The notes under the pieces: model-generated | The model's input: the letters and a program-made list of their open reading frames with translations, nothing else | Database searches by the model: none | Told to the model about the DNA's origin: nothing | Program-made: the position numbers and the translations under genes | IMG/VR virus record: IMGVR_UViG_2778261088_000009 | Location: 1 to 9,712 of that record | Strand: one strand, 5' to 3' | Source: a virus | Lineage: Duplodnaviria > Heunggongvirae > Uroviricota > Caudoviricetes | DNA: 9,712 nucleotides | Part shown: positions 1-9,712 of the stretch, piece after piece | Layout of the letters: each line of letters starts with the position of its first letter | How positions within the stretch are numbered: the first letter of the stretch is position 1

Positions 1-1158
1 ATGCTCACCGTTAAGCAGATTGAAGCAGCAAAGCCGAAAGAAAAACCATACCGCCTACTCGATGGTAATGGCCTGTACCTTTATGTCCCTGTATCAGGGA
101 AAAAGGTATGGCAGCTTCGCTACAAGATTGACGGTAAGGAGAAAATCCTGACTGTCGGAAAATATCCGCTTATGACTTTGCAGGAAGCAAGGGATAAGGC
201 ATGGACTGCGAGGAAAGACATCTCGGTTGGCATCGATCCGGTAAAGGCGAAAAAGGCTTCGTCTAACAACAATTCCTTTAGTGCGATTTACAAGGAATGG
301 TACGAGCACAAGAAGCAAGTCTGGTCAGTAGGCTATGCAAACGAACTTGCCAAAATGTTTGACGACGACATTTTACCTATCATCGGCGGCCTTGAAATTC
401 AGGATATTGAGCCGATACAACTGCTGGAAGTAATCCGCAGATTTGAAGATCGCGGTGCAATGGAGCGAGCCAACAAAGCACGTAGAAGATGCGGCGAGGT
501 TTTCCGTTACGCTATTGTCACCGGAAGGGCTAAATATAACCCGGCACCTGACCTTGCAGACGCCATGAAAGGATATCGCAAGAAGAACTTCCCGTTTTTA
601 CCTGCCGACCAGATCCCGGCATTCAACAAAGCACTGGCAACATTTTCAGGAAGTATCGTATCGCTCATTGCGACCAAAGTTTTACGCTACACAGCCCTCA
701 GAACAAAAGAGCTTCGTTCCATGCTATGGAAGAACGTCGATTTTGAAAACAGGATTATCACCATCGACGCCAATGTGATGAAGGGACGCAAGATTCATGT
801 GGTTCCGATGTCGGACCAGGTTATTGAACTTCTCACTACGCTAAGCTCAATCACTAAACCGGTATCAGAGTTTGTTTTTGCCGGACGCAACGATAAGAAG
901 AAGCCAATCTGCGAGAACGCGGTGCTACTTGTGATCAAACAAATCGGCTATGAGGGGCTGGAAAGCGGTCACGGATTCAGGCATGAATTCAGCACGATTA
1001 TGAACGAGCACGAATGGCCTGCCGACGCCATTGAAGTGCAACTGGCACATGCCAACGGCGGATCTGTGCGTGGGATTTACAACCATGCTCAGTATCTCGA
1101 TAAGCGCAGAGAAATGATGCAGTGGTGGGCTGACTGGATTGATGAAAAGGTGGAGTGA
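1..1158 (+). CDS. int: Phage integrase, tyrosine recombinase of the P4-like family (N-terminal arm-binding domain plus C-terminal catalytic domain)
   Basis: Complete 385-aa ORF starting at ATG at base 1. N-terminus (KPYRLLDGNGLYLYV...WQLRYKIDGKE) matches the P4-type integrase N-terminal domain. C-terminus HGFRHEFST...QLAHANGGSVRGIYNHAQYLDKRREMMQWWADWI carries the conserved R...H-x-x-R...Y tyrosine-recombinase signature. Length and sequence resemble enterobacterial argW-associated prophage integrases (IntS-like), from memory only. Confidence 0.93.
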   Translation: MLTVKQIEAAKPKEKPYRLLDGNGLYLYVPVSGKKVWQLRYKIDGKEKILTVGKYPLMTLQEARDKAWTARKDISVGIDPVKAKKASSNNNSFSAIYKEWYEHKKQVWSVGYANELAKMFDDDILPIIGGLEIQDIEPIQLLEVIRRFEDRGAMERANKARRRCGEVFRYAIVTGRAKYNPAPDLADAMKGYRKKNFPFLPADQIPAFNKALATFSGSIVSLIATKVLRYTALRTKELRSMLWKNVDFENRIITIDANVMKGRKIHVVPMSDQVIELLTTLSSITKPVSEFVFAGRNDKKKPICENAVLLVIKQIGYEGLESGHGFRHEFSTIMNEHEWPADAIEVQLAHANGGSVRGIYNHAQYLDKRREMMQWWADWIDEKVE

Positions 1159-1182
1159 TCCACCTTAACAACTATCGAAGAG

Positions 1183-1233
1183 CACAAAGCCTTGCAATCC
1201 AGTGCAAAGCTTTGTGTGTCTCAGTTTTGTTTC
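1183..1233 (+). terminator. Candidate rho-independent terminator downstream of int
   Basis: Hairpin at 1183-1216: 14-bp stem with one mismatch (cacaaagccttgca / tgcaaagctttgtg) and 6-nt loop, followed by a T-rich tract (tgtctcagttttgttt). Begins about 25 nt after the int stop codon. Confidence 0.5.
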
Positions 1234-1357
1234 ATCGGTAACAGCACGCCATAGAATGCTGACTTGCTTGATGTGTCTGCGGATCGCGATCCTTCAGTGC
1301 CCACTTAGTAGACAAGCGTTTGCAATCTTAGTGTTCAAACAAAGACAATATGTGGTA

Positions 1358-1432
1358 TTGTACCAATTGCAGTTTTATCTATTAACATGAAGCTATATTT
1401 ACAAGAATTTAGTAATTATCTATAGGTATAAC
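1358..1432 (+). promoter_or_regulatory. Candidate sigma70-like promoter(s) for the acetyltransferase gene
   Basis: AT-rich region with TTGTAC (1358-1363), 16-bp spacer, TATTAA (1380-1385); alternatively TTTACA (1398-1403), 17-bp spacer, TATAGG (1421-1426). Hexamers in AT-rich DNA are weak evidence. Confidence 0.3.
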
Positions 1433-1433
1433 A

Positions 1434-2078
1434 ATGAATTTTCCTGGCCCAGCATCAACTGCTTCTTATTTAAGATCTAATTACAGCAGAGATTTCTTGA
1501 CTATTCAGTGTGGTGAATACACATACGGAAAACCAAGAATTGAGATTGGGATGCATGACGACAAGCGAATTCTTTCAATTGGTGAATATTGCTCTATAGC
1601 TTTCGACGTTGTGATTTTTGTTGGAAGACAAGGTCGTCATGCGACAAATACATTAACAAGTTACCCGCTAAATATGGTTGTAGATCCTGAGTTAAGAAAT
1701 GGATTTAACCCTACAGGACATATATGGCAGGCGAGCTCTGACATATTTGGGAAAGATCTTGATGTTATCATAGGGCATGATGTATGGATTGGTTCTAGAT
1801 GTACAATTTTAGCAGGGGTTAATATTGGAACTGGTGCCATCATTGCCGCAGGCTCTGTTGTTACTAAAGATGTACCGCCATATGCAATTGTAGGAGGAGT
1901 ACCAGCTAAGGTTATTAGATACAGACATCCTCCAGAAATAATTGATAGATTATTAAAGACTGAATGGTGGAAGTTAAAACCTAATGAGCTGTGGAATTTG
2001 ATTGGTTCATCTTTCGGGACGTCTAATATTGAAATCCCATTAAAAATATTAGAAAACAGAAGCGCTTCAGAAAAATAA
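1434..2078 (+). CDS. Hexapeptide-repeat (left-handed beta-helix) acetyltransferase of the XAT class (Vat / CatB-like xenobiotic acetyltransferase)
   Basis: 214-aa ORF. Shows the motifs I associate with streptogramin A (Vat) and CatB-type acetyltransferases: N-terminal GEYTYG, the H-A-T-N-T...SYPL segment with the presumed catalytic His, hexapeptide repeats (IIGHDVWIGSRCTILAGVNIGTGAIIAAGSVVTKDVPPYAIVGGVPAKVIR) and a C-terminal LL-x-x-EWW motif. The gene and its flanks are visibly AT-rich compared with int and the tailspike 5' half. Confidence 0.85.
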   Translation: MNFPGPASTASYLRSNYSRDFLTIQCGEYTYGKPRIEIGMHDDKRILSIGEYCSIAFDVVIFVGRQGRHATNTLTSYPLNMVVDPELRNGFNPTGHIWQASSDIFGKDLDVIIGHDVWIGSRCTILAGVNIGTGAIIAAGSVVTKDVPPYAIVGGVPAKVIRYRHPPEIIDRLLKTEWWKLKPNELWNLIGSSFGTSNIEIPLKILENRSASEK

Positions 2079-2092
2079 AATAATATTTATTA

Positions 2093-2122
2093 AGGCCATG
2101 CTCCCCACTGAAAGCATGGCCT
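2093..2122. terminator. Bidirectional rho-independent terminator between the convergent acetyltransferase and tailspike genes
   Basis: Perfect 10-bp inverted repeat aggccatgct / agcatggcct (2093-2102 and 2113-2122) with a 10-nt loop, flanked by A/T-rich tracts on both sides. Lies between the two convergent stop codons (2078 and 2173). Confidence 0.6.
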
Positions 2123-2172
2123 ATTGTATTAAATATTTATACCTTTGATAATTTTTACTTTATTAAAGCATG

Positions 2173-4608
2173 TTATATATTTTCTCTCATTTCTATCATT
2201 TCAATTCTAGATAATGCTTTTTGGTAATTCCTGCGTTGTAATGCAGCTTCAAGGACTAAAGCCTCTTCATAACGGATACCATAACGTGAGCCTGCAGGAG
2301 TGACCAGAATATCTTCATATTCTGGATCTGCCTCTTCTTCATACTCTTCTTCGACTTCTTGAAACTCTGTCTCGATGTACTCCTCTTCTACATCTTCAAC
2401 TACAGGGACGCTCACGAATGGATTTTGCGCAAAAGGTGAACCATCTTCATTAAGAACAGGTATCATTTCCATTTTTGGAGTCTGATACTCTTCATTCACT
2501 ACTCGTTTAATCCGTGTTCCGTCTTCCAGTACCTCATCCTTTAATACCTGACGACTCTCAGTAACCATCACTGGTTTGCTTACAATTCGAGTTTTAGTAA
2601 CCTGCACTGGAACTGTTGTTATGCGAGTTTTAGTAACCATTACACCTTCGTTTGTCTGAACCTTAGTATATTGATCATCCCACTCGTCAAAGCAAAAGAA
2701 TCCAAATCGGTGCGCATCAAGTCCATGACGCTCAAACGCCTCTTTCGCACGCTGAGCGATCACACCAAAATGCCAGCGCGCCCCGTCCTCACCTTTTTCT
2801 TCCACCCTGTCGAGATACTGGAACTGCACAAAATCTACCTCCGACCAGGCATCCAGAATCGCATCAGCAAAAGATGGTTGCATCAATCGTTCGTCTGATG
2901 TGACAACAAAATCAAGCACCCCACGGGCGAGGATCGGAGGGTTTTTCGTTTTGTGATTCTCATCTGACGTTACGGTGAAGGCTGTCTGTGTGGCCCCGCC
3001 AGCCCAAGCAAGAGCAGCCGTGCCGCAATTAATGGCATTTGTGGTGGTTGGCGTGAGCGCCTTATTTACTGTAACAGTGCCAGTGCCAAGTGCCTCCAGC
3101 GCAATTGAACAATTGCTGATACCTTCGGCACTGATCCTGATGCGAGGATCCGTGATGCTTGCAGTACGCAGGCGAACTGCTCCAGTATCACCGTCTGCAT
3201 AGGACAGGCGAAAGGCCCTCAGCCCATTTCCTTCTAAATCAAAGCTTCGGTCCCTAAATACAGCTCCCATACGCACAGCATTGTTGGACACGCGAGATTG
3301 TAAGTAGCTAAGGCTATTGCCCGCCCCGTCCTCCCAACCTATCCGGTGGGTATTTCGCATAACAATGGCTTTCTGGTATACATCTGTTAAGCCAGACTCA
3401 GTGAAGGTTCTCAAAGATCCGATAGGATATGCAATGCCTGCTCCCCACTTAGATCCATTGGAACTAATGGCTAACGCCTGTGTGCAATCCTCAGTTGTGC
3501 CATTGATTGTCGGGTCTGCACCTGCAACCAAAGATATACCAGTGGTCTTACCACGGTTATCTGCGCTATGCATGTCTACGTAGGTGCCGTGGTTAACTAT
3601 CGCCATCTCAGCACACCAGGTAGTGCCCTTTGCATTGGGGTAACGTTTTGCATCTAAGTATAACGCCCAAACGTTATTGGTTACACCTGATTCATTATCG
3701 TTAACTCCCACTCCAACCACGCCAATAGCGGCACCACCAGTAGGCATTTCTTTATTATGTGCCGCTCCAGCCATACCAATGGCCCCAGTTGAAGAATAGG
3801 ACGCAAAGGTGGCGTTTTTCTCGACCCATCCCAGATTTGGCTGAAGTGTCCCATTGGGGGCTACATAATCTTTCTTCCCCAGCCAGGTACTTTGATCTAC
3901 AGGCGCATCCTTTGCACCTGAATAATCAAAGGCGGCGTCCCCAACAAATAAACGCGGATACCTGGAGGAGTTAACTGGTGTTCCAGGCTCAGACCAAACA
4001 GGACGCCGCTTAAGCATCACGCCGCCAGTGCCTAAAAACTCGGCTTCACTGTCTACAATAAAATTACCTCTATGGAAGGAATTTAATAGATATTTCCCGG
4101 CAGGGACATAAACATCTCCAGCAAACAAGGCCGCAACTGCAAATGAACTGTCCGAGTTATTAGCGCCTGTTGAATCTGCTCCTCCAGCAAATCCACTCCA
4201 AGTAACAGGCTTTGCTAATCCTCCGACAAATCCAGCTCCACCAGGACCCTCCAGTTCAGATCGCAGTTGATCAGGGTCATACTTCAGCACATTAGGAAAA
4301 TAGAACTGCTGCGCACCATATGCATCATATACAGCCATAGAATGGCCTTGCACGGTTACGAATTTGGCAATCTGTCCGTTATATACTGGATACCCTGCGG
4401 CATTGATGACGATCGGCTGTGCAACAGGAACGTGAGAACCATCTTCGTTCTCAACATAGACCTGAATCTGGTTATCAGGATTTACCGGGTCAGTGTCAAT
4501 TTTACCGATATAAATTTTGCCATTAGCCACGGCTTTAAAAGAACGAGCCATAGTGAAGAGTTGCGAAGGCATACTCACTACAACATTGGCATTTATCGAA
4601 TCTGTCAT
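2173..4608 (-). CDS. Tailspike protein, mosaic: P22-type head-binding N-terminal domain, unrelated central (receptor-binding / depolymerase-like) body, C-terminal intramolecular-chaperone-like domain
   Basis: 811-aa ORF with a GGAG Shine-Dalgarno about 9 nt upstream of the ATG at 4606-4608. The first ~115 aa ([44 protein letters not shown]...[15 protein letters not shown]...NVLKYDPDQ) are near-identical in pattern to the P22 gp9 head-binding domain as I remember it. The central region is Gly/Ala/Thr/Asn-rich with no P22 similarity. The last ~240 aa (from [12 protein letters not shown]) resemble the auto-cleaving C-terminal chaperone domains of endosialidase and T5-pb1-type fibers and end in a highly acidic tail. 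Confidence 0.9.
2587..2638. repeat. Tandem direct repeat inside the tailspike 3' coding region
   Basis: 15-16-nt unit (t/g)cgagttttagtaacc at 2587-2602 and 2623-2638 (36-nt period), encoding the repeated peptide VTKTRI in the tailspike C-terminal domain. Confidence 0.7.
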
Positions 4609-4648
4609 TTAATTTGCTCCAGATACAAGGAATCGCCGCAGCATGGCT

Positions 4649-4771
4649 ACGGTGAATTTTTTTGTGATAAAACAACTTTTTAGGAAGTTATTTTGTTCGC
4701 TTTTTGCACTACACTTTTTGTGTAGTGCTCTCCTTCAAGCTCATTACCTAAGCGTGGACACGGTGAATTTT
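4649..4771. repeat. Pair of direct repeats (ACGGTGAATTTT) upstream of the tailspike start
   Basis: Exact 12-mer acggtgaatttt at 4649-4660 and 4760-4771, with extended similarity over about 19 nt (gcatggctacggtgaatttt vs gcgtggacacggtgaatttt). Candidate regulator binding sites; function unknown. Confidence 0.4.
4706..4728. promoter_or_regulatory. Perfect 9-bp inverted repeat (gcactacac-ttttt-gtgtagtgc), operator-like or RNA hairpin
   Basis: Perfect palindrome arms at 4706-4714 and 4720-4728 with a 5-nt loop, about 100 nt upstream of the tailspike ATG. Not followed by a U-tract on either strand, so not a canonical terminator. Confidence 0.3.
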
Positions 4772-4776
4772 GGGCA

Positions 4777-4801
4777 TAAAAAAACCCAGCCGAAGCTGGG
4801 T
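4777..4801 (-). terminator. Rho-independent terminator (first of a tandem pair) downstream of the 322-aa gene
   Basis: On the minus strand: stem acccagc / gctgggt (7 bp) with tetraloop, followed by a run of 6-7 U (plus-strand A-run 4778-4784). Confidence 0.6.
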
Positions 4802-4850
4802 CGTTGCGTTGGTTATCTGTCAGTAGTTATGTGCTGGCTGAAGGATTTGT

Positions 4851-4877
4851 ACAAAAAACCCACCTGAAGGTGGGTTT
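4851..4877 (-). terminator. Rho-independent terminator immediately after the stop codon of the 322-aa gene
   Basis: 9-bp stem (4856-4864 / 4869-4877) with tgaa loop, followed on the minus strand by a T-rich tract. Starts about 6 nt after the TAA at 4883-4885. Confidence 0.55.
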
Positions 4878-4882
4878 CATAA

Positions 4883-5851
4883 TTAGATTTCTGGTTTCAT
4901 TCTTCCGAAAACCTTTTCTATTCCTTTTTCGTATTCTTCTCTTGTCTCACTCATCGCTGCGACACCAAGAAGCTTACCGATATGCTGACGCAAAGCCTTG
5001 ACACCAATTTCAGAAAGGAACAGATGCAACTTATCAGATTGTTTTCCGTTCTCGTCTCGGCTGGCTCGAATCTGTTCAAGGATTTTACCTTTACTCTTTG
5101 CTAGCGGGGTGTATATCTGCATGTTGGTTAGCTGCCCAAAACGAATAGGCCGTCCTTTCTCTGGCCTATTCAGGCCGTACAGTCGATACCACTCCTCGTA
5201 TAGCTCATCTGGAAATTCCTTTTCATATTGACGAGCCTCTTCACGAACAAACGCTTTGAACTCGTCAATGACAGCCTGAACTTCTGGACGATAACCAGCA
5301 AGCGCATACGCAACCCCCTTAATTCCCGCCTTAGCGGAGGCATTAATAAGTCTCTGTGCTGCGGCGGCTGCCTTTAACCGTGATTGTGGTAGATCGTCAT
5401 TATCTTTGGCTTCTATTAGTGCCCTACCAATATCAACAATTGCTGTAATGTCATAACCTAACGCTTGATGAACGGTTTTAGACTTCGAAGTAAGTTGAAA
5501 TTTATAGGGATTTTCCATTTTTCGCTGCAATTCTAGATCTCGGTATTTGCTCATATACTGAGCGCCAAGCAGTTGATCTAAATCCCTGGCATGTTCACCA
5601 ATCCCTAGCAACTGAGATAATCCAGTTTTCGTAACAACGACAGTTTTCGACTCGTCATCCAGTACATAACATTCAGCATCAATGCCAAAATCATCTAAAA
5701 AGTTACCACGATGAGTTGCCCTGAGAATCTTACTTTTCCATCTTGCAGCAGCTGCTTTCTTTGCTATTTCAGAACGCTGCTCTTTAGTCAGCGACTTTGC
5801 GCGAGCGATCCCGCCCTTAGCTTTCCCTTCGCCACTTTTCTTTTCAGTCAT
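4883..5851 (-). CDS. Hypothetical protein (322 aa) with a basic N-terminal motif; occupies the position held by the antirepressor/immunity-I genes in P22
   Basis: Long minus-strand ORF. I place the start at the ATG at 5849-5851 (MTEKKSGEGKAKGG...) because AAAGGTG sits 9 nt upstream; the track's longer start at 5914 adds 21 implausible residues. The N-terminus GGIARAKSLTKEQRSEIAKKAAAARW looks like a basic nucleic-acid-binding motif. No family assigned with confidence. Confidence 0.8.
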   Translation of the reverse strand: MTEKKSGEGKAKGGIARAKSLTKEQRSEIAKKAAAARWKSKILRATHRGNFLDDFGIDAECYVLDDESKTVVVTKTGLSQLLGIGEHARDLDQLLGAQYMSKYRDLELQRKMENPYKFQLTSKSKTVHQALGYDITAIVDIGRALIEAKDNDDLPQSRLKAAAAAQRLINASAKAGIKGVAYALAGYRPEVQAVIDEFKAFVREEARQYEKEFPDELYEEWYRLYGLNRPEKGRPIRFGQLTNMQIYTPLAKSKGKILEQIRASRDENGKQSDKLHLFLSEIGVKALRQHIGKLLGVAAMSETREEYEKGIEKVFGRMKPEI

Positions 5852-5944
5852 AATGCAAGCACCTTTGTTGTGATGTATGCTTGCATTATATGCACTGTAC
5901 ACACATACAAGCAAGCATAAAACAAAAACAAAATGCTTGCATTA
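5850..5944. promoter_or_regulatory. Two operator-like palindromes built from four copies of the half-site TAATGCAAGCA in the divergent intergenic region
   Basis: Palindrome 1: 12-bp arms ataatgcaagca (5850-5861) and tgcttgcattat (5878-5889), 16-bp spacer, covering the -10 and the start codon of the 322-aa gene. Palindrome 2: arms gcaagcat (5911-5918) and atgcttgc (5933-5940, extending to atgcttgcatta), 14-bp spacer, overlapping the -35. Centres are about 56 bp apart. Confidence 0.55.
5885..5914 (-). promoter_or_regulatory. Candidate sigma70 promoter for the 322-aa gene
   Basis: On the minus strand: TTGCTT (5909-5914), 18-bp spacer, perfect TATAAT (5885-5890). Leaves a ~26-nt leader containing the AAAGGTG Shine-Dalgarno. 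Both hexamers overlap the palindromic half-sites in the next feature. Confidence 0.5.
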
Positions 5945-6007
5945 CAACCGCGCTACTCCAACTACACATTATCATCTGGTATCCTGCTCAAAACTAAGGA
6001 GGTTGGT

Positions 6008-6331
6008 GTGTATACAACAGTTATCGTGATAGCTATCGCACTCATTGTGGTTCAGTACCAACTGGCATCTTTAAAACAAAAGATATCTGACCTCAAGACT
6101 GAGAACGAAGCACTTAAAAACTCAATAAAAGATGAGAAGAACAAACTATCATTCACCATATCTGATGTTGAGCAATCCATTGAAATTATTGAGAATAATA
6201 TTAACAGGCTAAAAAAAGAAGATATTCATGAAATCAATGACAATATCAAGGATTTGAAATCTTGGCTTAGGAATGTAGGACAAATCGCCACATCAACACG
6301 AGATAAGCTCAATCCATCCATGGATGATTAA
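6008..6331 (+). CDS. Small bitopic membrane protein with coiled-coil domain (107 aa from GTG 6008; track ORF starts at 5933)
   Basis: Strong AAGGAGG Shine-Dalgarno at 5996-6002, 5 nt before an in-frame GTG at 6008. Product starts with a hydrophobic helix (YTTVIVIAIALIVVQY) followed by heptad-like Lys/Glu/Asn-rich sequence (LKQKISDLKTENEALKNSIKDEKNKL...). AT-rich codon usage unlike the neighbouring late genes. Confidence 0.6.
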   Translation: MYTTVIVIAIALIVVQYQLASLKQKISDLKTENEALKNSIKDEKNKLSFTISDVEQSIEIIENNINRLKKEDIHEINDNIKDLKSWLRNVGQIATSTRDKLNPSMDD

Positions 6332-6679
6332 TTACTCCTGTGCCATTCCGCTTAGCGACGCTACAATGCCAGCCCTCGCTAAGCGATTGAACTCTTCGTT
6401 TCCAACTGCATCACGTATTGCTTTTATGGCGACTTTATTTGCCATAAATCTGCGTTCCGCCGCCGCTAATGCTTCTTTGCTTCCACCTGCTCTTACTGCT
6501 TTGGTGGCTTCCTGAACAGCTTTCTCTATCGCATATCGACCACTACGTGTGGTGGCAATTTTAGATACAGCGCCTTTTAACCCGGCGCCAACTAAAGCAC
6601 CCGCGGCAGCGCCTGCAATGCCCCCTCCAGCGCCACCAACAATGGCACCTGATGTTGAGTTGGCAATTGCATTTAACAC
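6332..6679 (-). CDS. Hypothetical glycine-zipper protein (115 aa, GTG start)
   Basis: Minus-strand ORF beginning at a GTG that overlaps the upstream stop (GTGTTAA). N-terminal Gly/Ala-rich hydrophobic segment [28 protein letters not shown] is typical of glycine-zipper membrane-inserting helices. Could be a separate coupled gene or the 3' part of one frameshifted gene with the 149-aa ORF. Confidence 0.5.
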
Positions 6680-7122
6680 TGTTGATGTGACGTTGGATAC
6701 CCACCAATTGTTTCACCGGCTTGCGCGTAAGGGTCTGTCGGTCGATCGACTGGACGATAGACATCATCCAAAACCTTGGGTCCACCAAGCCCCTGACTGA
6801 TTGCATTAATCAGACTTGCGCCGCCCTGCAATACGTCAAATGGTATGTTTACCAGACCACGACCAGCCTGTTCTGCAATTTGCCCTGCACTTTGACCACC
6901 TGTGAGCCAATCATCAGCTTGTTGCATCAATGATGGTTCTTCTTTCTGCTGCTGAGGCGGAGGGTATGCTGCATAAAACTGATCTCTTGCTTCAGCCCAT
7001 TTGTCACCAGCCTTAGGGGCAACAACCTCATCAAAATATTGCGCTTGAGCCTGTGCTTTCTGTTCTTCAGTTAACGCCTGATACTGTGGAGAAGCGATAA
7101 CATCTTTCCATGCTTTAGCCAT
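6673..7122 (-). CDS. Hypothetical protein (149 aa), Gln/Ala/Pro-rich; possible virion internal or ejection-type protein
   Basis: Its ATG at 7120-7122 overlaps the TAA of the upstream 449-aa gene (TAATG), indicating translational coupling. Low-complexity Q/A/P-rich composition. No confident family assignment. Confidence 0.6.
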
Positions 7123-8471
7123 TAATCACCCCATAAAGACGAGAAACCGGACTTATTGCTGTCGCTTCCTGATTTTCGCTCACTAACATATGTGTCATAA
7201 CCTGATGAACTATATCCCATTGATTCAGCCTCCCTTGCTGCAACCTTTTGAAATACAGAATATTGCGATCGGATTTCAGATAACTGTTTTCTGACGACCT
7301 CTTCAGGCTGTGTTATATCGAGTTTCGCGATCAGGTTTTCCAGTTTTTGGCCTTCAGCATTGGAGAGGCTACCCATACCTCGCATAGTCTGCACGTTCTG
7401 GACAAACGCACCCGACTTTAATTCTTCTATCGCATTACGGTTTGCAAGCCCTTCAGCACTTGTGAAGCCATCTATATTTCTTCCTTCGAAGCGACCGATA
7501 CCTTCAAGCTCCTTCTTACCAAGCAAAGAATCAATTTTCTCTATCCCTCGCTCACCAGTAATCAACGCATTGTTGTAATTATTGTTGCCATCAAGCCATC
7601 TCTTAGCCTGAGACATTCTGGCTGACGTTGCAGCTTTACCGGTTAGAGGATCAATTCCCGTCGCTGCTATCTGTGAGTTAAGAGACAAAACATCCATATC
7701 CTGAAGTTGTCCTGCTCTTTCAAGGCCCGCCTGTGACTGCTTAAACACATACTTGTCGTGATTCAGTCTTGCCATTTGAGCCTTATAGGAAAGATCCTGC
7801 CCCCTAATAGCCCTCGCATTCGTCATGTCATTATTGCGAATGGTTTCGTTAATTCTTTGCTGCTCCTGCTGGCGACCAACCATCTTATCCTGAACAGCAA
7901 ACGCCTTTTCTGGCCCAAGTGCACCGAGAGACATAGTAGTCAGCATGTGTGATAGCTGCTCTGGATTCTGGATACCTGTCTGAATCATCCAGTCAGCATT
8001 CGCCCCCACGCGATTTAACCTGTCCTTGTTGTCAGTAATGAATTTACTGTAGGCTTCCGGCCCCTGAGAAAGAGCGACGTTAGCCCTCATGGCTAAATCG
8101 CCCATATCGTTGCGTTGCTGCTCATTAAGACCGGAAAATGCCTGTTGTGCCTGTGCAACAAACGCTGGATTTTCCTGGGCAAACTTAAATAGTCCCGATG
8201 GATCACCAGAAGCCCATGCATCAGCGTGAACCTTATTGAACGCACTAATAGCTTTCTGTTGCTGTTCCTGATTGTAAATATCAGCAACTCCAGCCAGACC
8301 ACGTAACGCGGTCAGACCAACGTTATTTGCACCTGAGCGAGCCAGTTCATTGTTTTCGCGGATCAGACCAAGCGTTGCGTTAATGTCGCTTGCCTTTGGC
8401 GCATTCTCATTTTGCGTACCGATGCCAGCCAGAAAACCACCAGAATTAATACCCTGTTGCCACGTAGCCAT
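7122..8471 (-). CDS. Hypothetical protein (449 aa), Gln/Asn/Ala-rich; possible virion internal or ejection-type protein
   Basis: Long ORF whose ATG (8469-8471) lies 2 nt after the stop of the gp4-like remnant, with AAGGGG Shine-Dalgarno. Its position after coat and gp4 in a P22-like late operon suggests a virion component. No similarity to P22 gp10 or gp26 as I remember them. Confidence 0.7.
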
Positions 8472-8473
8472 GA

Positions 8474-8719
8474 TTACCCCTTAAAACAACGAGCCAAGCA
8501 GACCAAGACCAGCACCGATAACGGCATGATGCCGTTTTCTGTATCCGCAAACTGATATCCAAGCTCGATACCTTTCGCCTGCCATGCTGCCATCATGTCT
8601 TCGAGGTCATTAATGGCATCTTCAATTGCCTGAGGGTCAGCATCTGTCAACGTGGCATTGGAATACAGCCCGGCTTTTCGTAAAGCCTTTAGAACGAGAT
8701 CACCCTTCGTTTTCGCCAT
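8474..8719 (-). pseudogene. N-terminal remnant of a gp4-like tail accessory (head completion) gene
   Basis: 81-aa ORF. The first ~66 aa ([62 protein letters not shown]) track the P22 gp4 N-terminus as I remember it. The ORF then ends after 18 unrelated residues ([18 protein letters not shown]), whereas P22 gp4 is about 166 aa. The break coincides with a 17-bp palindrome at 8520-8536. Confidence 0.55.
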
Positions 8720-8888
8720 CTTCTTCCGCCTTAGCCACTTTTTGCTTCGTTGCGGTTTCTTCAGGAGTTTTTACCCAACCTTTTTTCAGGTGAGATTTAA
8801 CTTCTTCGTCATCAACAATGATGTAATCGACAGCAAACTGACCACAGGTGATCATGTTGCCAGGCTTATAGAGCATTGTTCGTGCCAT
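8700..8888 (-). CDS. Small hypothetical protein (62 aa from the internal ATG at 8886-8888) between coat and the gp4-like gene
   Basis: ATG at 8886-8888 preceded by GGGAGAAG about 6 nt upstream and located just downstream of the coat terminator hairpin. The track's longer start at 8927 would overlap that hairpin. Codon usage resembles neighbouring genes. Its 3' end overlaps the gp4-like start by 20 nt. Confidence 0.45.
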
Positions 8889-8900
8889 TGTCTTCTCCCA

Positions 8901-8922
8901 ATAAAAATGGGGCCGAAGCCCC
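8901..8922 (-). terminator. Rho-independent (probably partial) terminator immediately after the coat gene
   Basis: On the minus strand: GGGGC-UUCG-GCCCC (5-bp GC stem with UUCG tetraloop; plus-strand 8909-8922) followed by AUUUUUAUU. Begins 8 nt after the coat TAA at 8930-8932. Confidence 0.55.
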
Positions 8923-8929
8923 GCCAAAA

Positions 8930-9712
8930 TTACTGCCCGGCAATAACGATGCCCGTATATTCAGGAACAAGTACAGAGCAACCATACAGAGTGGTGAAAC
9001 GAGCAGTGGTTACGCCTTTGATGTGGTCGAAGGCGTAAGACATGATCAGCGTAGCGCCCTGCTCGGTGGTTGCTGTCATTACCTGTGGACCCTGACCAGT
9101 CGGGAACGCCAGTTTGCCGTACATCAGCTCAACAGAACCATCAGCCCAGAACAGGTTAGCCGGTGCGGCATTTTTGTTGAGAATGGTAATTGCTGCACCA
9201 TTTGCCGCGTTAGCATCAACGTTTGCATATGGTCGGCTGGCGACATCCGCGTTGTCAGGCGGCAGAATTTTCGGGGAGATAGTTACTGTCGTTCCGCTTA
9301 CTGCCAGAACGCGGAATACCTGCGGCTGCCCGGTGGTGTCTTTGGTGATCTGGTGTACAGAATTCACGCCAGCAATGGTGAACGCATCGCCAACCTGCAA
9401 CCCAGATGCAGATACCGTAATAGTCCCCTGTCGGTTATCCACTGGCATATCGTTGGCATCTTTCGCTTCAACCTTGTGCGCAGGTTCAGCCGCCAGCGTC
9501 AGGGAAGTTGCTGTACCCTTCGGAACACGACCAGAAATATCCGTCTTGTAGCTATCGAAGGACGCAACCGGAGGGATCTGCGCTTTTTCGTATGCTGTCA
9601 GGGTTGCGCCCTGAGCATAGGCACGGTGACCAAGCTCGCCAGCAAGGTCTTTGTAGTTGAAGGGGTTCCAGAAAGAGCGGCGGTTGATACCCTGTGGTAT
9701 CGGCCTTGGCAC
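8930..9712 (-). CDS. Major capsid (coat) protein, P22 gp5-like, 5'-truncated by the window edge (C-terminal ~260 aa present)
   Basis: The ORF runs off the right edge; the leading 'M' in the track is a GTG at the window boundary, not a start. Translation aligns by eye with the C-terminal ~260 aa of P22 coat as I remember it (SFWNPFNYKDLAG vs SYFFNPQDYKKAG; RPYANVDANAANGAAITILNKNAAPANLFWADGS vs [34 protein letters not shown]). Confidence 0.9.
   Translation of the reverse strand: MPRPIPQGINRRSFWNPFNYKDLAGELGHRAYAQGATLTAYEKAQIPPVASFDSYKTDISGRVPKGTATSLTLAAEPAHKVEAKDANDMPVDNRQGTITVSASGLQVGDAFTIAGVNSVHQITKDTTGQPQVFRVLAVSGTTVTISPKILPPDNADVASRPYANVDANAANGAAITILNKNAAPANLFWADGSVELMYGKLAFPTGQGPQVMTATTEQGATLIMSYAFDHIKGVTTARFTTLYGCSVLVPEYTGIVIAGQ

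Follow-up and report, generated by a model that had tools for sequence, protein, structure and literature searches.

Predicted P22-like ejection genes 20 and 16 behind an apparent three-gene operon in a decayed Escherichia coli prophage

We analysed a stretch of 9,712 nucleotides from a tailed-phage record (IMG/VR IMGVR_UViG_2778261088_000009, positions 1 to 9,712), hereafter the window. An earlier note, made from the letters alone, had drawn attention to three open reading frames (ORFs) of 449, 149 and 115 aa, chained by overlapping stop and start codons, and had read them as a translationally coupled operon of low-complexity proteins. Using the program-made ORF list together with the minus-strand sequence of the window, we found all three ORFs, each on the minus strand (Table 1), and both of the overlaps that had been described: TAATG at 7124-7120 and GTGTTAA at 6679-6673 of the minus-strand sequence. 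Since the three ORFs are 97-98% identical to annotated proteins of phage CUS-3, they are not chance ORFs.

Megablast of positions 6200-8600 against phage records matched CUS-3 (97.8% identity) and HK620 (95.8%). In both phages the match fell into two pieces, such that ~3.69 kb of phage DNA correspond to 2.3 kb of window, and it involved genes 7, 20, 16 and hkcB. The reference proteins were CUS-3 gp20 (ABQ88391.1) and gp16 (ABQ88390.1) and their HK620 homologues (AAK28901.1 and AAK28902.1); in CUS-3, gp7, gp20 and gp16 are 230, 449 and 719 aa long, respectively (PMC8954989). The window shares with CUS-3 and HK620 a nucleotide identity of 97-98% to these proteins' genes, the gene order 7-20-16 with a convergent hkcB, the TAATG overlap and a gp20 of 449 aa, and of their gp16 it keeps the N-terminal 142 and the C-terminal 115-122 residues, including a glycine zipper. 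However, 1,369 internal bp are missing from its gene 16, which is frameshifted, its gene 7 is reduced to the last ~40 nt, and the whole element is a ~9.9-kb remnant, whereas the phages measure 38-40 kb.

Table 1. Positions in the window of the genes, gene fragments, overlaps and deletion junctions discussed in the text.
Feature	Position	Strand	Remarks
hkcB homologue	6008..6331	plus	Convergent, downstream of gene 16; in the place of sieA in P22
115-aa ORF	6332-6679	minus	GTG start; predicted gp16 residues 605-719
Gene 16 3' fragment (predicted)	6332..6695	minus	gp16 codons ~599-719 and stop
Glycine zipper	~6587-6649	minus	Residues 615-635 of the 719-aa gp16
149-aa ORF	6673-7122	minus	Predicted gp16 residues 1-142 and 7 out-of-frame residues
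Out-of-frame tail of the 149-aa ORF	6673..6695	minus	PTSHQQC and TAA, after Tyr142
Deletion junction 1	6696..6699		1,369 bp of gene 16 gone (CUS-3 record 9295-10663)
Gene 16 5' fragment (predicted)	6700..7122	minus	gp16 codons 1-141; the Tyr142 codon lies across the GATA microhomology
TAATG overlap, genes 20/16	7120-7124	minus	Native junction of P22-like phages
449-aa ORF	7122-8471	minus	Predicted gene 20
Chimeric 81-aa ORF	8474..8719	minus	gp4 residues 1 to ~67 and the gene 7 end, out of frame
Gene 7 end (ejection protein gp7)	8481..8519	minus	Last ~40 nt; native TAA 8483-8481
Deletion junction 2	8519..8520		~3,500 bp gone (CUS-3 12486-15985), TA microhomology
Coat gene (gene 5) 3' part	8930..9699	minus	260-aa ORF; 5' end lost to deletion 3
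Deletion junction 3	9698..9712		TA at 9698-9699, then host dsdX sequence

On the alignments obtained, the 449-aa ORF is an intact, full-length gene 20, predicted to encode the ejection or DNA transfer protein gp20. It aligned colinearly and gap-free with CUS-3 gp20 over 449 of 449 residues, 441 of which are identical (98%), and it was 85% identical to residues 1-232 of P22 gp20. It also matched profile positions 1-217 of the 218 of Pfam PF16928 (Inj_translocase, described as "DNA/protein translocase of phage P22 injectosome") with 364.6 bits and an E-value of 2.3e-109, the curated cut-off of this family being 29.7 bits, while phrog_2534 covered residues 1-448 (E 7e-177). The exact 449-aa sequence is on record as WP_097337138.1, 'DNA transfer protein [Escherichia coli]'. 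With the end of gene 7 on one side and the start of gene 16 on the other, the ORF occupies the syntenic position of gene 20. A search of PDB sequences returned nothing for gp20.

The two smaller ORFs are the two ends of one gene 16, which is very probably now a pseudogene. Of residues 1-142 of CUS-3 gp16, 139 are identical in the 149-aa ORF (98%), and residues 53-131 of P22 gp16 are 95% identical to it. The 115-aa ORF corresponds to CUS-3 gp16 residues 605-719 (112/115 identical, 97%), its initial methionine being aligned to Val605. Consistently, in the profile phrog_770 ('DNA transfer protein', 668 positions) the 149-aa ORF covers positions 2-141 (E 1e-60) and the 115-aa ORF positions 592-666 (E 5e-17), and both carry precomputed PF26808 (Phage_P22_gp16) annotations. 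A local Pfam search gave no match for the 149-aa and 115-aa ORFs or even for full-length CUS-3 gp16; NCBIfam likewise matched none of the proteins, full-length CUS-3 gp16 included, and the PDB sequence search with gp16 returned only a spurious match of 20 bits. The suggestion in the earlier note that the ORFs are ejection (internal virion) proteins was therefore borne out, since they correspond to gp20 and the ends of gp16. Its view that they are of an unfamiliar type, with no match to P22 gp7, gp20 or gp16, was mistaken, given the 85% and 95% identities to P22 gp20 and gp16 and the 98% identity to CUS-3.

The breakpoint inside gene 16 was located by blastn: positions 5992-6699 of the window align to CUS-3 8587-9294 (96.9% identity) and positions 6696-8520 to CUS-3 10660-12485, and the tetranucleotide GATA is common to both sides, as a 4-bp microhomology. 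Comparison with HK620 as well as with CUS-3 gives the same deletions of 1,369 bp here and ~3,500 bp further on. The missing 1,369 bp (3x456+1) remove gp16 residues ~143-598 and shift the reading frame, so that bases 6673-6695, which in the native frame encode residues 599 to ~606, are read in the 149-aa ORF as an out-of-frame tail. The C-terminal 122 codons of gp16 keep their native frame but lie behind a TGA, and the 115-aa ORF was reported by the ORF finder because the GTG of Val605 is the first start-like codon past this TGA; no Shine-Dalgarno-like sequence was found ahead of that GTG (cacatcaacaGTG). A P22-type gp16 is a single complete frame of ~600-720 aa, and deletion and frameshift have left none in the window: the gp16 pieces are fragments of a family member, not a functional member. 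A frameshift within a single gene of ~260 aa had been considered in the earlier note for the 149/115 junction; the frameshift was rightly suspected, but the ancestral gene was one of 719 aa.

The two overlaps differ in origin. The 1-nt overlap of genes 20 and 16 is likewise annotated in CUS-3 (11086), HK620 (L002 5291) and P22 (L004 3485). The GTGTTAA overlap arose by accident with the frameshift, exists only through the deletion and occurs in 0 of 5,426 complete E. coli genomes. The ORFs and the overlaps of the proposed three-gene operon are real, and the 20/16 overlap is a native one that would allow coupling, but the 149-aa and 115-aa ORFs are one gene broken by a deletion and not two.

The 115-aa ORF begins with a Gly/Ala-rich hydrophobic stretch with five consecutive GxxxG spacings (G615-G619-G623-G627-G631-G635 in gp16 numbering) and a maximal Kyte-Doolittle 19-mer mean of 1.63. 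The motif that had been described as the N-terminal glycine zipper of a small protein is real, but it is an internal segment of gp16. Indeed, it is native to the intact phages, at G615-G635 in CUS-3 gp16 and G614-G634 in HK620 gp16; a simple scan of P22 gp16 (609 aa) found no GxxxGxxxG run and no strongly hydrophobic 19-mer. Glycine-zipper and bacteriocin family profiles of Pfam gave no match to the 115-aa ORF at E<=0.01, and at E<=5 only sub-threshold noise appeared (Bacteriocin_IIc with 10.2 bits for a cut-off of 27.1, C19orf12 and YidB). Because no family matched and intact gp16 itself carries the segment, a novel glycine-zipper toxin or bacteriocin was rejected. Insertion of P22 gp16 into liposomes is reported in a review that cites Perez et al. 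2009 (PMC8954989), and the C-terminal zipper segment of CUS-3/HK620-type gp16 is plausibly a candidate inner-membrane-inserting element. In the searchable literature we found no paper linking gp16 and a glycine zipper.

Two further deletions delimit the neighbouring genes. Position 8520 of the window aligns to CUS-3 12485, within CUS-3 gene 7 (12446-13138), and beyond this point deletion 2 takes the remainder of gene 7, genes 14, 26 and 10, and 261 nt from the 3' end of gene 4. The junction directly adjoins a palindrome at 8520-8536, which is native to gene 4. The resulting chimeric 81-aa ORF matches Pfam PF11650 (P22_Tail-4) at profile positions 4-66 of 159 only and phrog_637 at positions 2-65 of 156, gp4 being a tail accessory protein or head-tail adaptor. 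The 260-aa ORF matches PF11651 (P22_CoatProtein) at profile positions 160-423 of 423 only, and the alignment to the CUS-3 coat gene stops at window position 9699. Deletion 3, defined by its junction sequence and by comparison with prophage-free E. coli, took away the 5' part of the coat gene together with all that remained of the prophage, attR, dsdC and 206 nt at the start of dsdX. The hkcB homologue downstream of gene 16 matches phrog_5962 (E 2e-58) and corresponds to CUS-3 hkcB (8603-8926).

The whole window is 100% identical to contig NNXM01000001.1 of the E. coli draft assembly GCA_002486265.1. From the left, the locus reads yfdC, tRNA-Arg(CCT), int, an acetyltransferase gene, the tailspike gene, a P63C gene, hkcB and the gene 16 fragments, and onward gene 20, the gp4'-'gp7 chimera, a small ORF, the truncated coat gene, 5'-truncated dsdX, dsdA, emrYK and evgAS. 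No neuO-like heptanucleotide tandem array was found near the acetyltransferase gene. The element, of ~9.9 kb and located at argW, carries no portal, terminase, scaffold, lysis, late-regulation, replication or immunity genes. It is a heavily deleted, dead P22-like prophage remnant in E. coli, and without portal, terminase, scaffold and tail genes it cannot produce virions. E. coli K-12 carries a cryptic prophage at argW, CPS-53/KpLE1, with the integrase gene intS. The element resembles CPS-53/KpLE1 in its IntS-type integrase by tRNA-Arg(CCT), in its position between yfdC and the dsd locus and in the small number of surviving phage genes, the homologous integrase being annotated 'prophage integrase IntS' in RefSeq; it differs in what has survived, namely the tailspike, O-acetyltransferase and P63C genes, hkcB, gene 20 and gene fragments.

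The age of the damage can be approached from the surviving coding sequence. Nei-Gojobori dN/dS values against CUS-3 and HK620 range from 0.05 to 0.17; the substitutions therefore date from a time when the phage genes were functional, and the damage is recent and due to deletions alone. The earlier note had held that untranslated remnants with disrupted codon periodicity would speak against its reading. Gene 16 is indeed disrupted, within a dead prophage, but codon periodicity is undisrupted, because identity to functional phage genes still stands at 97-98% in the remnants.

The window and P22 have the same gp20 and gp16 families in the same operon position; however, the relation is mosaic, the C-terminal halves of gp20 and gp16 have diverged, and P22 gp16 has 609 aa. 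The P22 virion packages ~12 copies of gp7, ~12 of gp16 and ~30 of gp20, which are ejected and form a trans-periplasmic DNA conduit (PMC8402733; PMC8954989), and the E-proteins of CUS-3 and HK620 can stand in for those of P22 in hybrids (PMC10461980). A review pairs gp20 with T7 gp15 and P22-type gp16 with T7 gp16 (PMC8954989). The T7 gp15/gp16 ejectosome, a functional analogue, is alike in that ejected internal virion proteins form a periplasmic tunnel with an inner-membrane element, but the searches that were run detected no sequence similarity between the T7 proteins and gp20 or gp16.

From the observed identities, breakpoints and genomic context, we consider it very probable (roughly 94%) that the region holds P22-like late-operon ejection genes in a decayed prophage, with a gene 20 that is intact but functionless and a gene 16 that is a pseudogene. 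According to this scenario, a P22-like temperate phage (genus Lederbergvirus, CUS-3/HK620 type) would have integrated at tRNA-Arg (argW) of E. coli, and the prophage would then have been gutted by three microhomology-mediated deletions. Deletion and frameshift in gene 16 would have left an N-terminal stub of 149 aa and, orphaned but still in frame, a C-terminal piece. The ancestral phage would have packaged gp7, gp20 and gp16 in the head and ejected them at infection to form a trans-envelope DNA conduit. At this locus the genes are orphaned: partners and capsid are missing, the region of the late promoter and antiterminator has been deleted, and a search of the coding strand between 6200 and 9712 gave no consensus sigma-70-like promoter, which is weak evidence. 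The region is thus presumably silent, although read-through or a non-consensus promoter could transcribe it, and we infer that the ejection genes most likely do nothing here.

Might the three ORFs instead be a real coupled operon, made of gp20 and two domesticated gp16 fragments that serve, for example, as a membrane-active zipper peptide or a superinfection decoy? The overlapping stop and start signals exist, and so does a strong membrane-type motif, the glycine zipper; SieA-type superinfection exclusion acts through gp16 and gp20 (PMC10461980), so that ejection proteins are an established target of exclusion. Gene 20, moreover, lies undamaged between two deletions, a possible hint of retention; however, the survival of a 1.35-kb ORF in a recently deleted prophage is what chance would give. 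Termination-reinitiation at the GTG, 4 nt ahead of the TAA of the 149-aa ORF, is physically possible, but this GTG is an internal valine codon without a Shine-Dalgarno sequence, and the native late promoter region is gone. With PADLOC, none of the three ORFs matched a defence-system profile, and the matches of hkcB were coiled-coil noise. Nor is there any sign of spread or conservation, because neither junction 1 nor junction 2, searched by megablast with 161-bp probes, occurs in any of the 5,426 complete E. coli genomes, which gave half-matches only. An exact-match scan with a 34-mer of the gene 16 junction found 0 occurrences in GTDB species representatives and 0 in IMG/VR, and the junction-specific 149-aa and 81-aa proteins occur in 2 contig records each among ~15 billion proteins. 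We thus regard a domesticated operon as very improbable. A more specific variant deserves even less credence, namely that gp20 and the gp16 stubs, expressed from a fortuitous promoter and with the zipper fragment made by reinitiation, poison the DNA channel of incoming P22-like phages or yield a membrane-depolarising peptide. If true, channel poisoning would be a new route of superinfection exclusion, by dominant-negative ejection-protein fragments.

It is similarly hard to credit that gene 16 appears split only through an artefact of sequencing or assembly, either a collapsed assembly or an indel error in a gene otherwise intact or in frame. The sequence is carried by a draft assembly, and an indel at 6670-6680, to be sought in the reads, had been suggested in the earlier note. 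However, what is missing is not one or two bases but 1,369 bp, at a clean junction with microhomology, and a single-base sequencing indel was rejected on this ground. In addition, the separately assembled Logan contig of SRR3993873 is identical to the window over 8.6 kb, and the 9.7 kb contain two further deletions of this style, one of which has joined the prophage to a host gene; this fits genuine prophage decay. The deletions are supported by the identity of two assemblies, whose source may be a single strain or even a single set of data.

The least credible proposal, to which we assign a negligible chance, is programmed ribosomal frameshifting that would make one functional mini-gp16 of ~264 aa from the two fragments: the frames do overlap by ~25 nt, from the junction to the TAA, but a -1 shift would be required and, on direct reading, the overlap (GGGTATCCAACGTCACATCAACAGTGTTAA) has no X XXY YYZ slippery heptamer, so that this candidate was rejected, and moreover the arrangement was born of a deletion, is found in no other known genome and lacks 456 residues that are conserved in functional phages.

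The reading as ejection genes of a decayed prophage makes the finding an ordinary one, as the ejection proteins and their biology are already known. Its main value is a correct annotation: what seemed an operon of odd low-complexity proteins corresponds to genes 20 and 16, and for WP_244580953.1, the 115-aa "hypothetical protein", the proper annotation is a C-terminal fragment of gp16, a pseudogene piece. Beyond annotation, the locus offers a clean example of stepwise prophage decay through deletions at microhomologies of 2-4 bp, and the five-fold GxxxG zipper of CUS-3/HK620-type gp16 is a candidate that may be of use to researchers studying the ejectosome.

The C-terminal gene 16 fragment carries a five-fold GxxxG glycine zipper, at residues 615-635 of the CUS-3-type gp16 (window ~6587-6649). 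The motif is conserved in HK620-type gp16 at residues 614-634; it was not found in P22 gp16 by a simple motif and hydropathy scan, and no mention of it in connection with gp16 was found in the searchable literature. In a MAFFT alignment, CUS-3 gp16 (8927-11086 of the CUS-3 record) and HK620 gp16 (3123-5291 of the HK620 record) are colinear and 78% identical. The text of PMC10461980 gives only 26% identity for these two proteins; this mismatch may reflect the use of another comparison in that paper.

A second deletion, of ~3.5 kb, removed genes 14, 26 and 10 together with most of gene 7 and the 3' portion of gene 4, leaving an out-of-frame fusion with a TA microhomology at its breakpoint (see table). 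This breakpoint adjoins a perfect palindrome with a 7-bp stem (window 8520-8536, AACGGCATGATGCCGTT) that is native to gene 4. The small conserved ORF between gene 4 and the coat gene has a homologue in CUS-3, a hypothetical ORF of 62 aa in the same location (16167-16355). At the far end of the window, the truncated coat gene runs into host dsdX. The remainder of the prophage has been deleted here along with attR and dsdC, and dsdX itself lacks its first 206 nt. In the strain with this fusion, regulated uptake and catabolism of D-serine have probably been lost, despite an intact dsdA.

Features of the remnant and their coordinates
Feature	Window positions	Strand	Remarks
CatB-related hexapeptide O-acetyltransferase	1434-2078	+	adjoins tailspike
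Tailspike, 811 aa	2173-4608	-	P22-type head-binding domain, residues 4-114; Peptidase_S74, residues 582-630
P63C-domain protein, 343 aa	4883-5914	-	phrog_2384; ant/immI region, between gene 16 and tailspike
hkcB homologue	6008-6331 (ORF list: 5933-6331)	+	phrog_5962
Fusion at second deletion	8474-8719; junction 8519-8520		first ~67 codons of gene 4 and last ~40 nt of gene 7, out of frame
Small conserved ORF	8700-8927	-	phrog_1175; lies between gene 4 and coat gene; length called in source assembly, 62 aa
Truncated coat gene joined to host dsdX	9698-9712; 6294-7426 of record L005		TA microhomology at fusion

Convergent with gene 16 lies the hkcB homologue, a small protein in which a hydrophobic helix (VYTTVIVIAIALIVV) precedes a coiled coil, at the map position held in P22 by the superinfection-exclusion gene sieA. 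Its PADLOC matches are only coiled-coil noise. The adjacent P63C/ant-immI stretch is mosaic: the phages and prophages that it matches differ from those matching the rest of the window.

The tailspike and O-acetyltransferase genes are both intact. In the tailspike, the Peptidase_S74 domain, an intramolecular-chaperone domain, is followed by ~180 acidic, repeat-like residues. The O-acetyltransferase occupies the site where CUS-3 carries neuO, and a heptanucleotide repeat array of the CUS-3 neuO type is absent from it. The int-acetyltransferase-tailspike module is found at 98-99.6% identity in several complete E. coli genomes, and the tailspike and acetyltransferase genes might be the selectively retained portion of the remnant.
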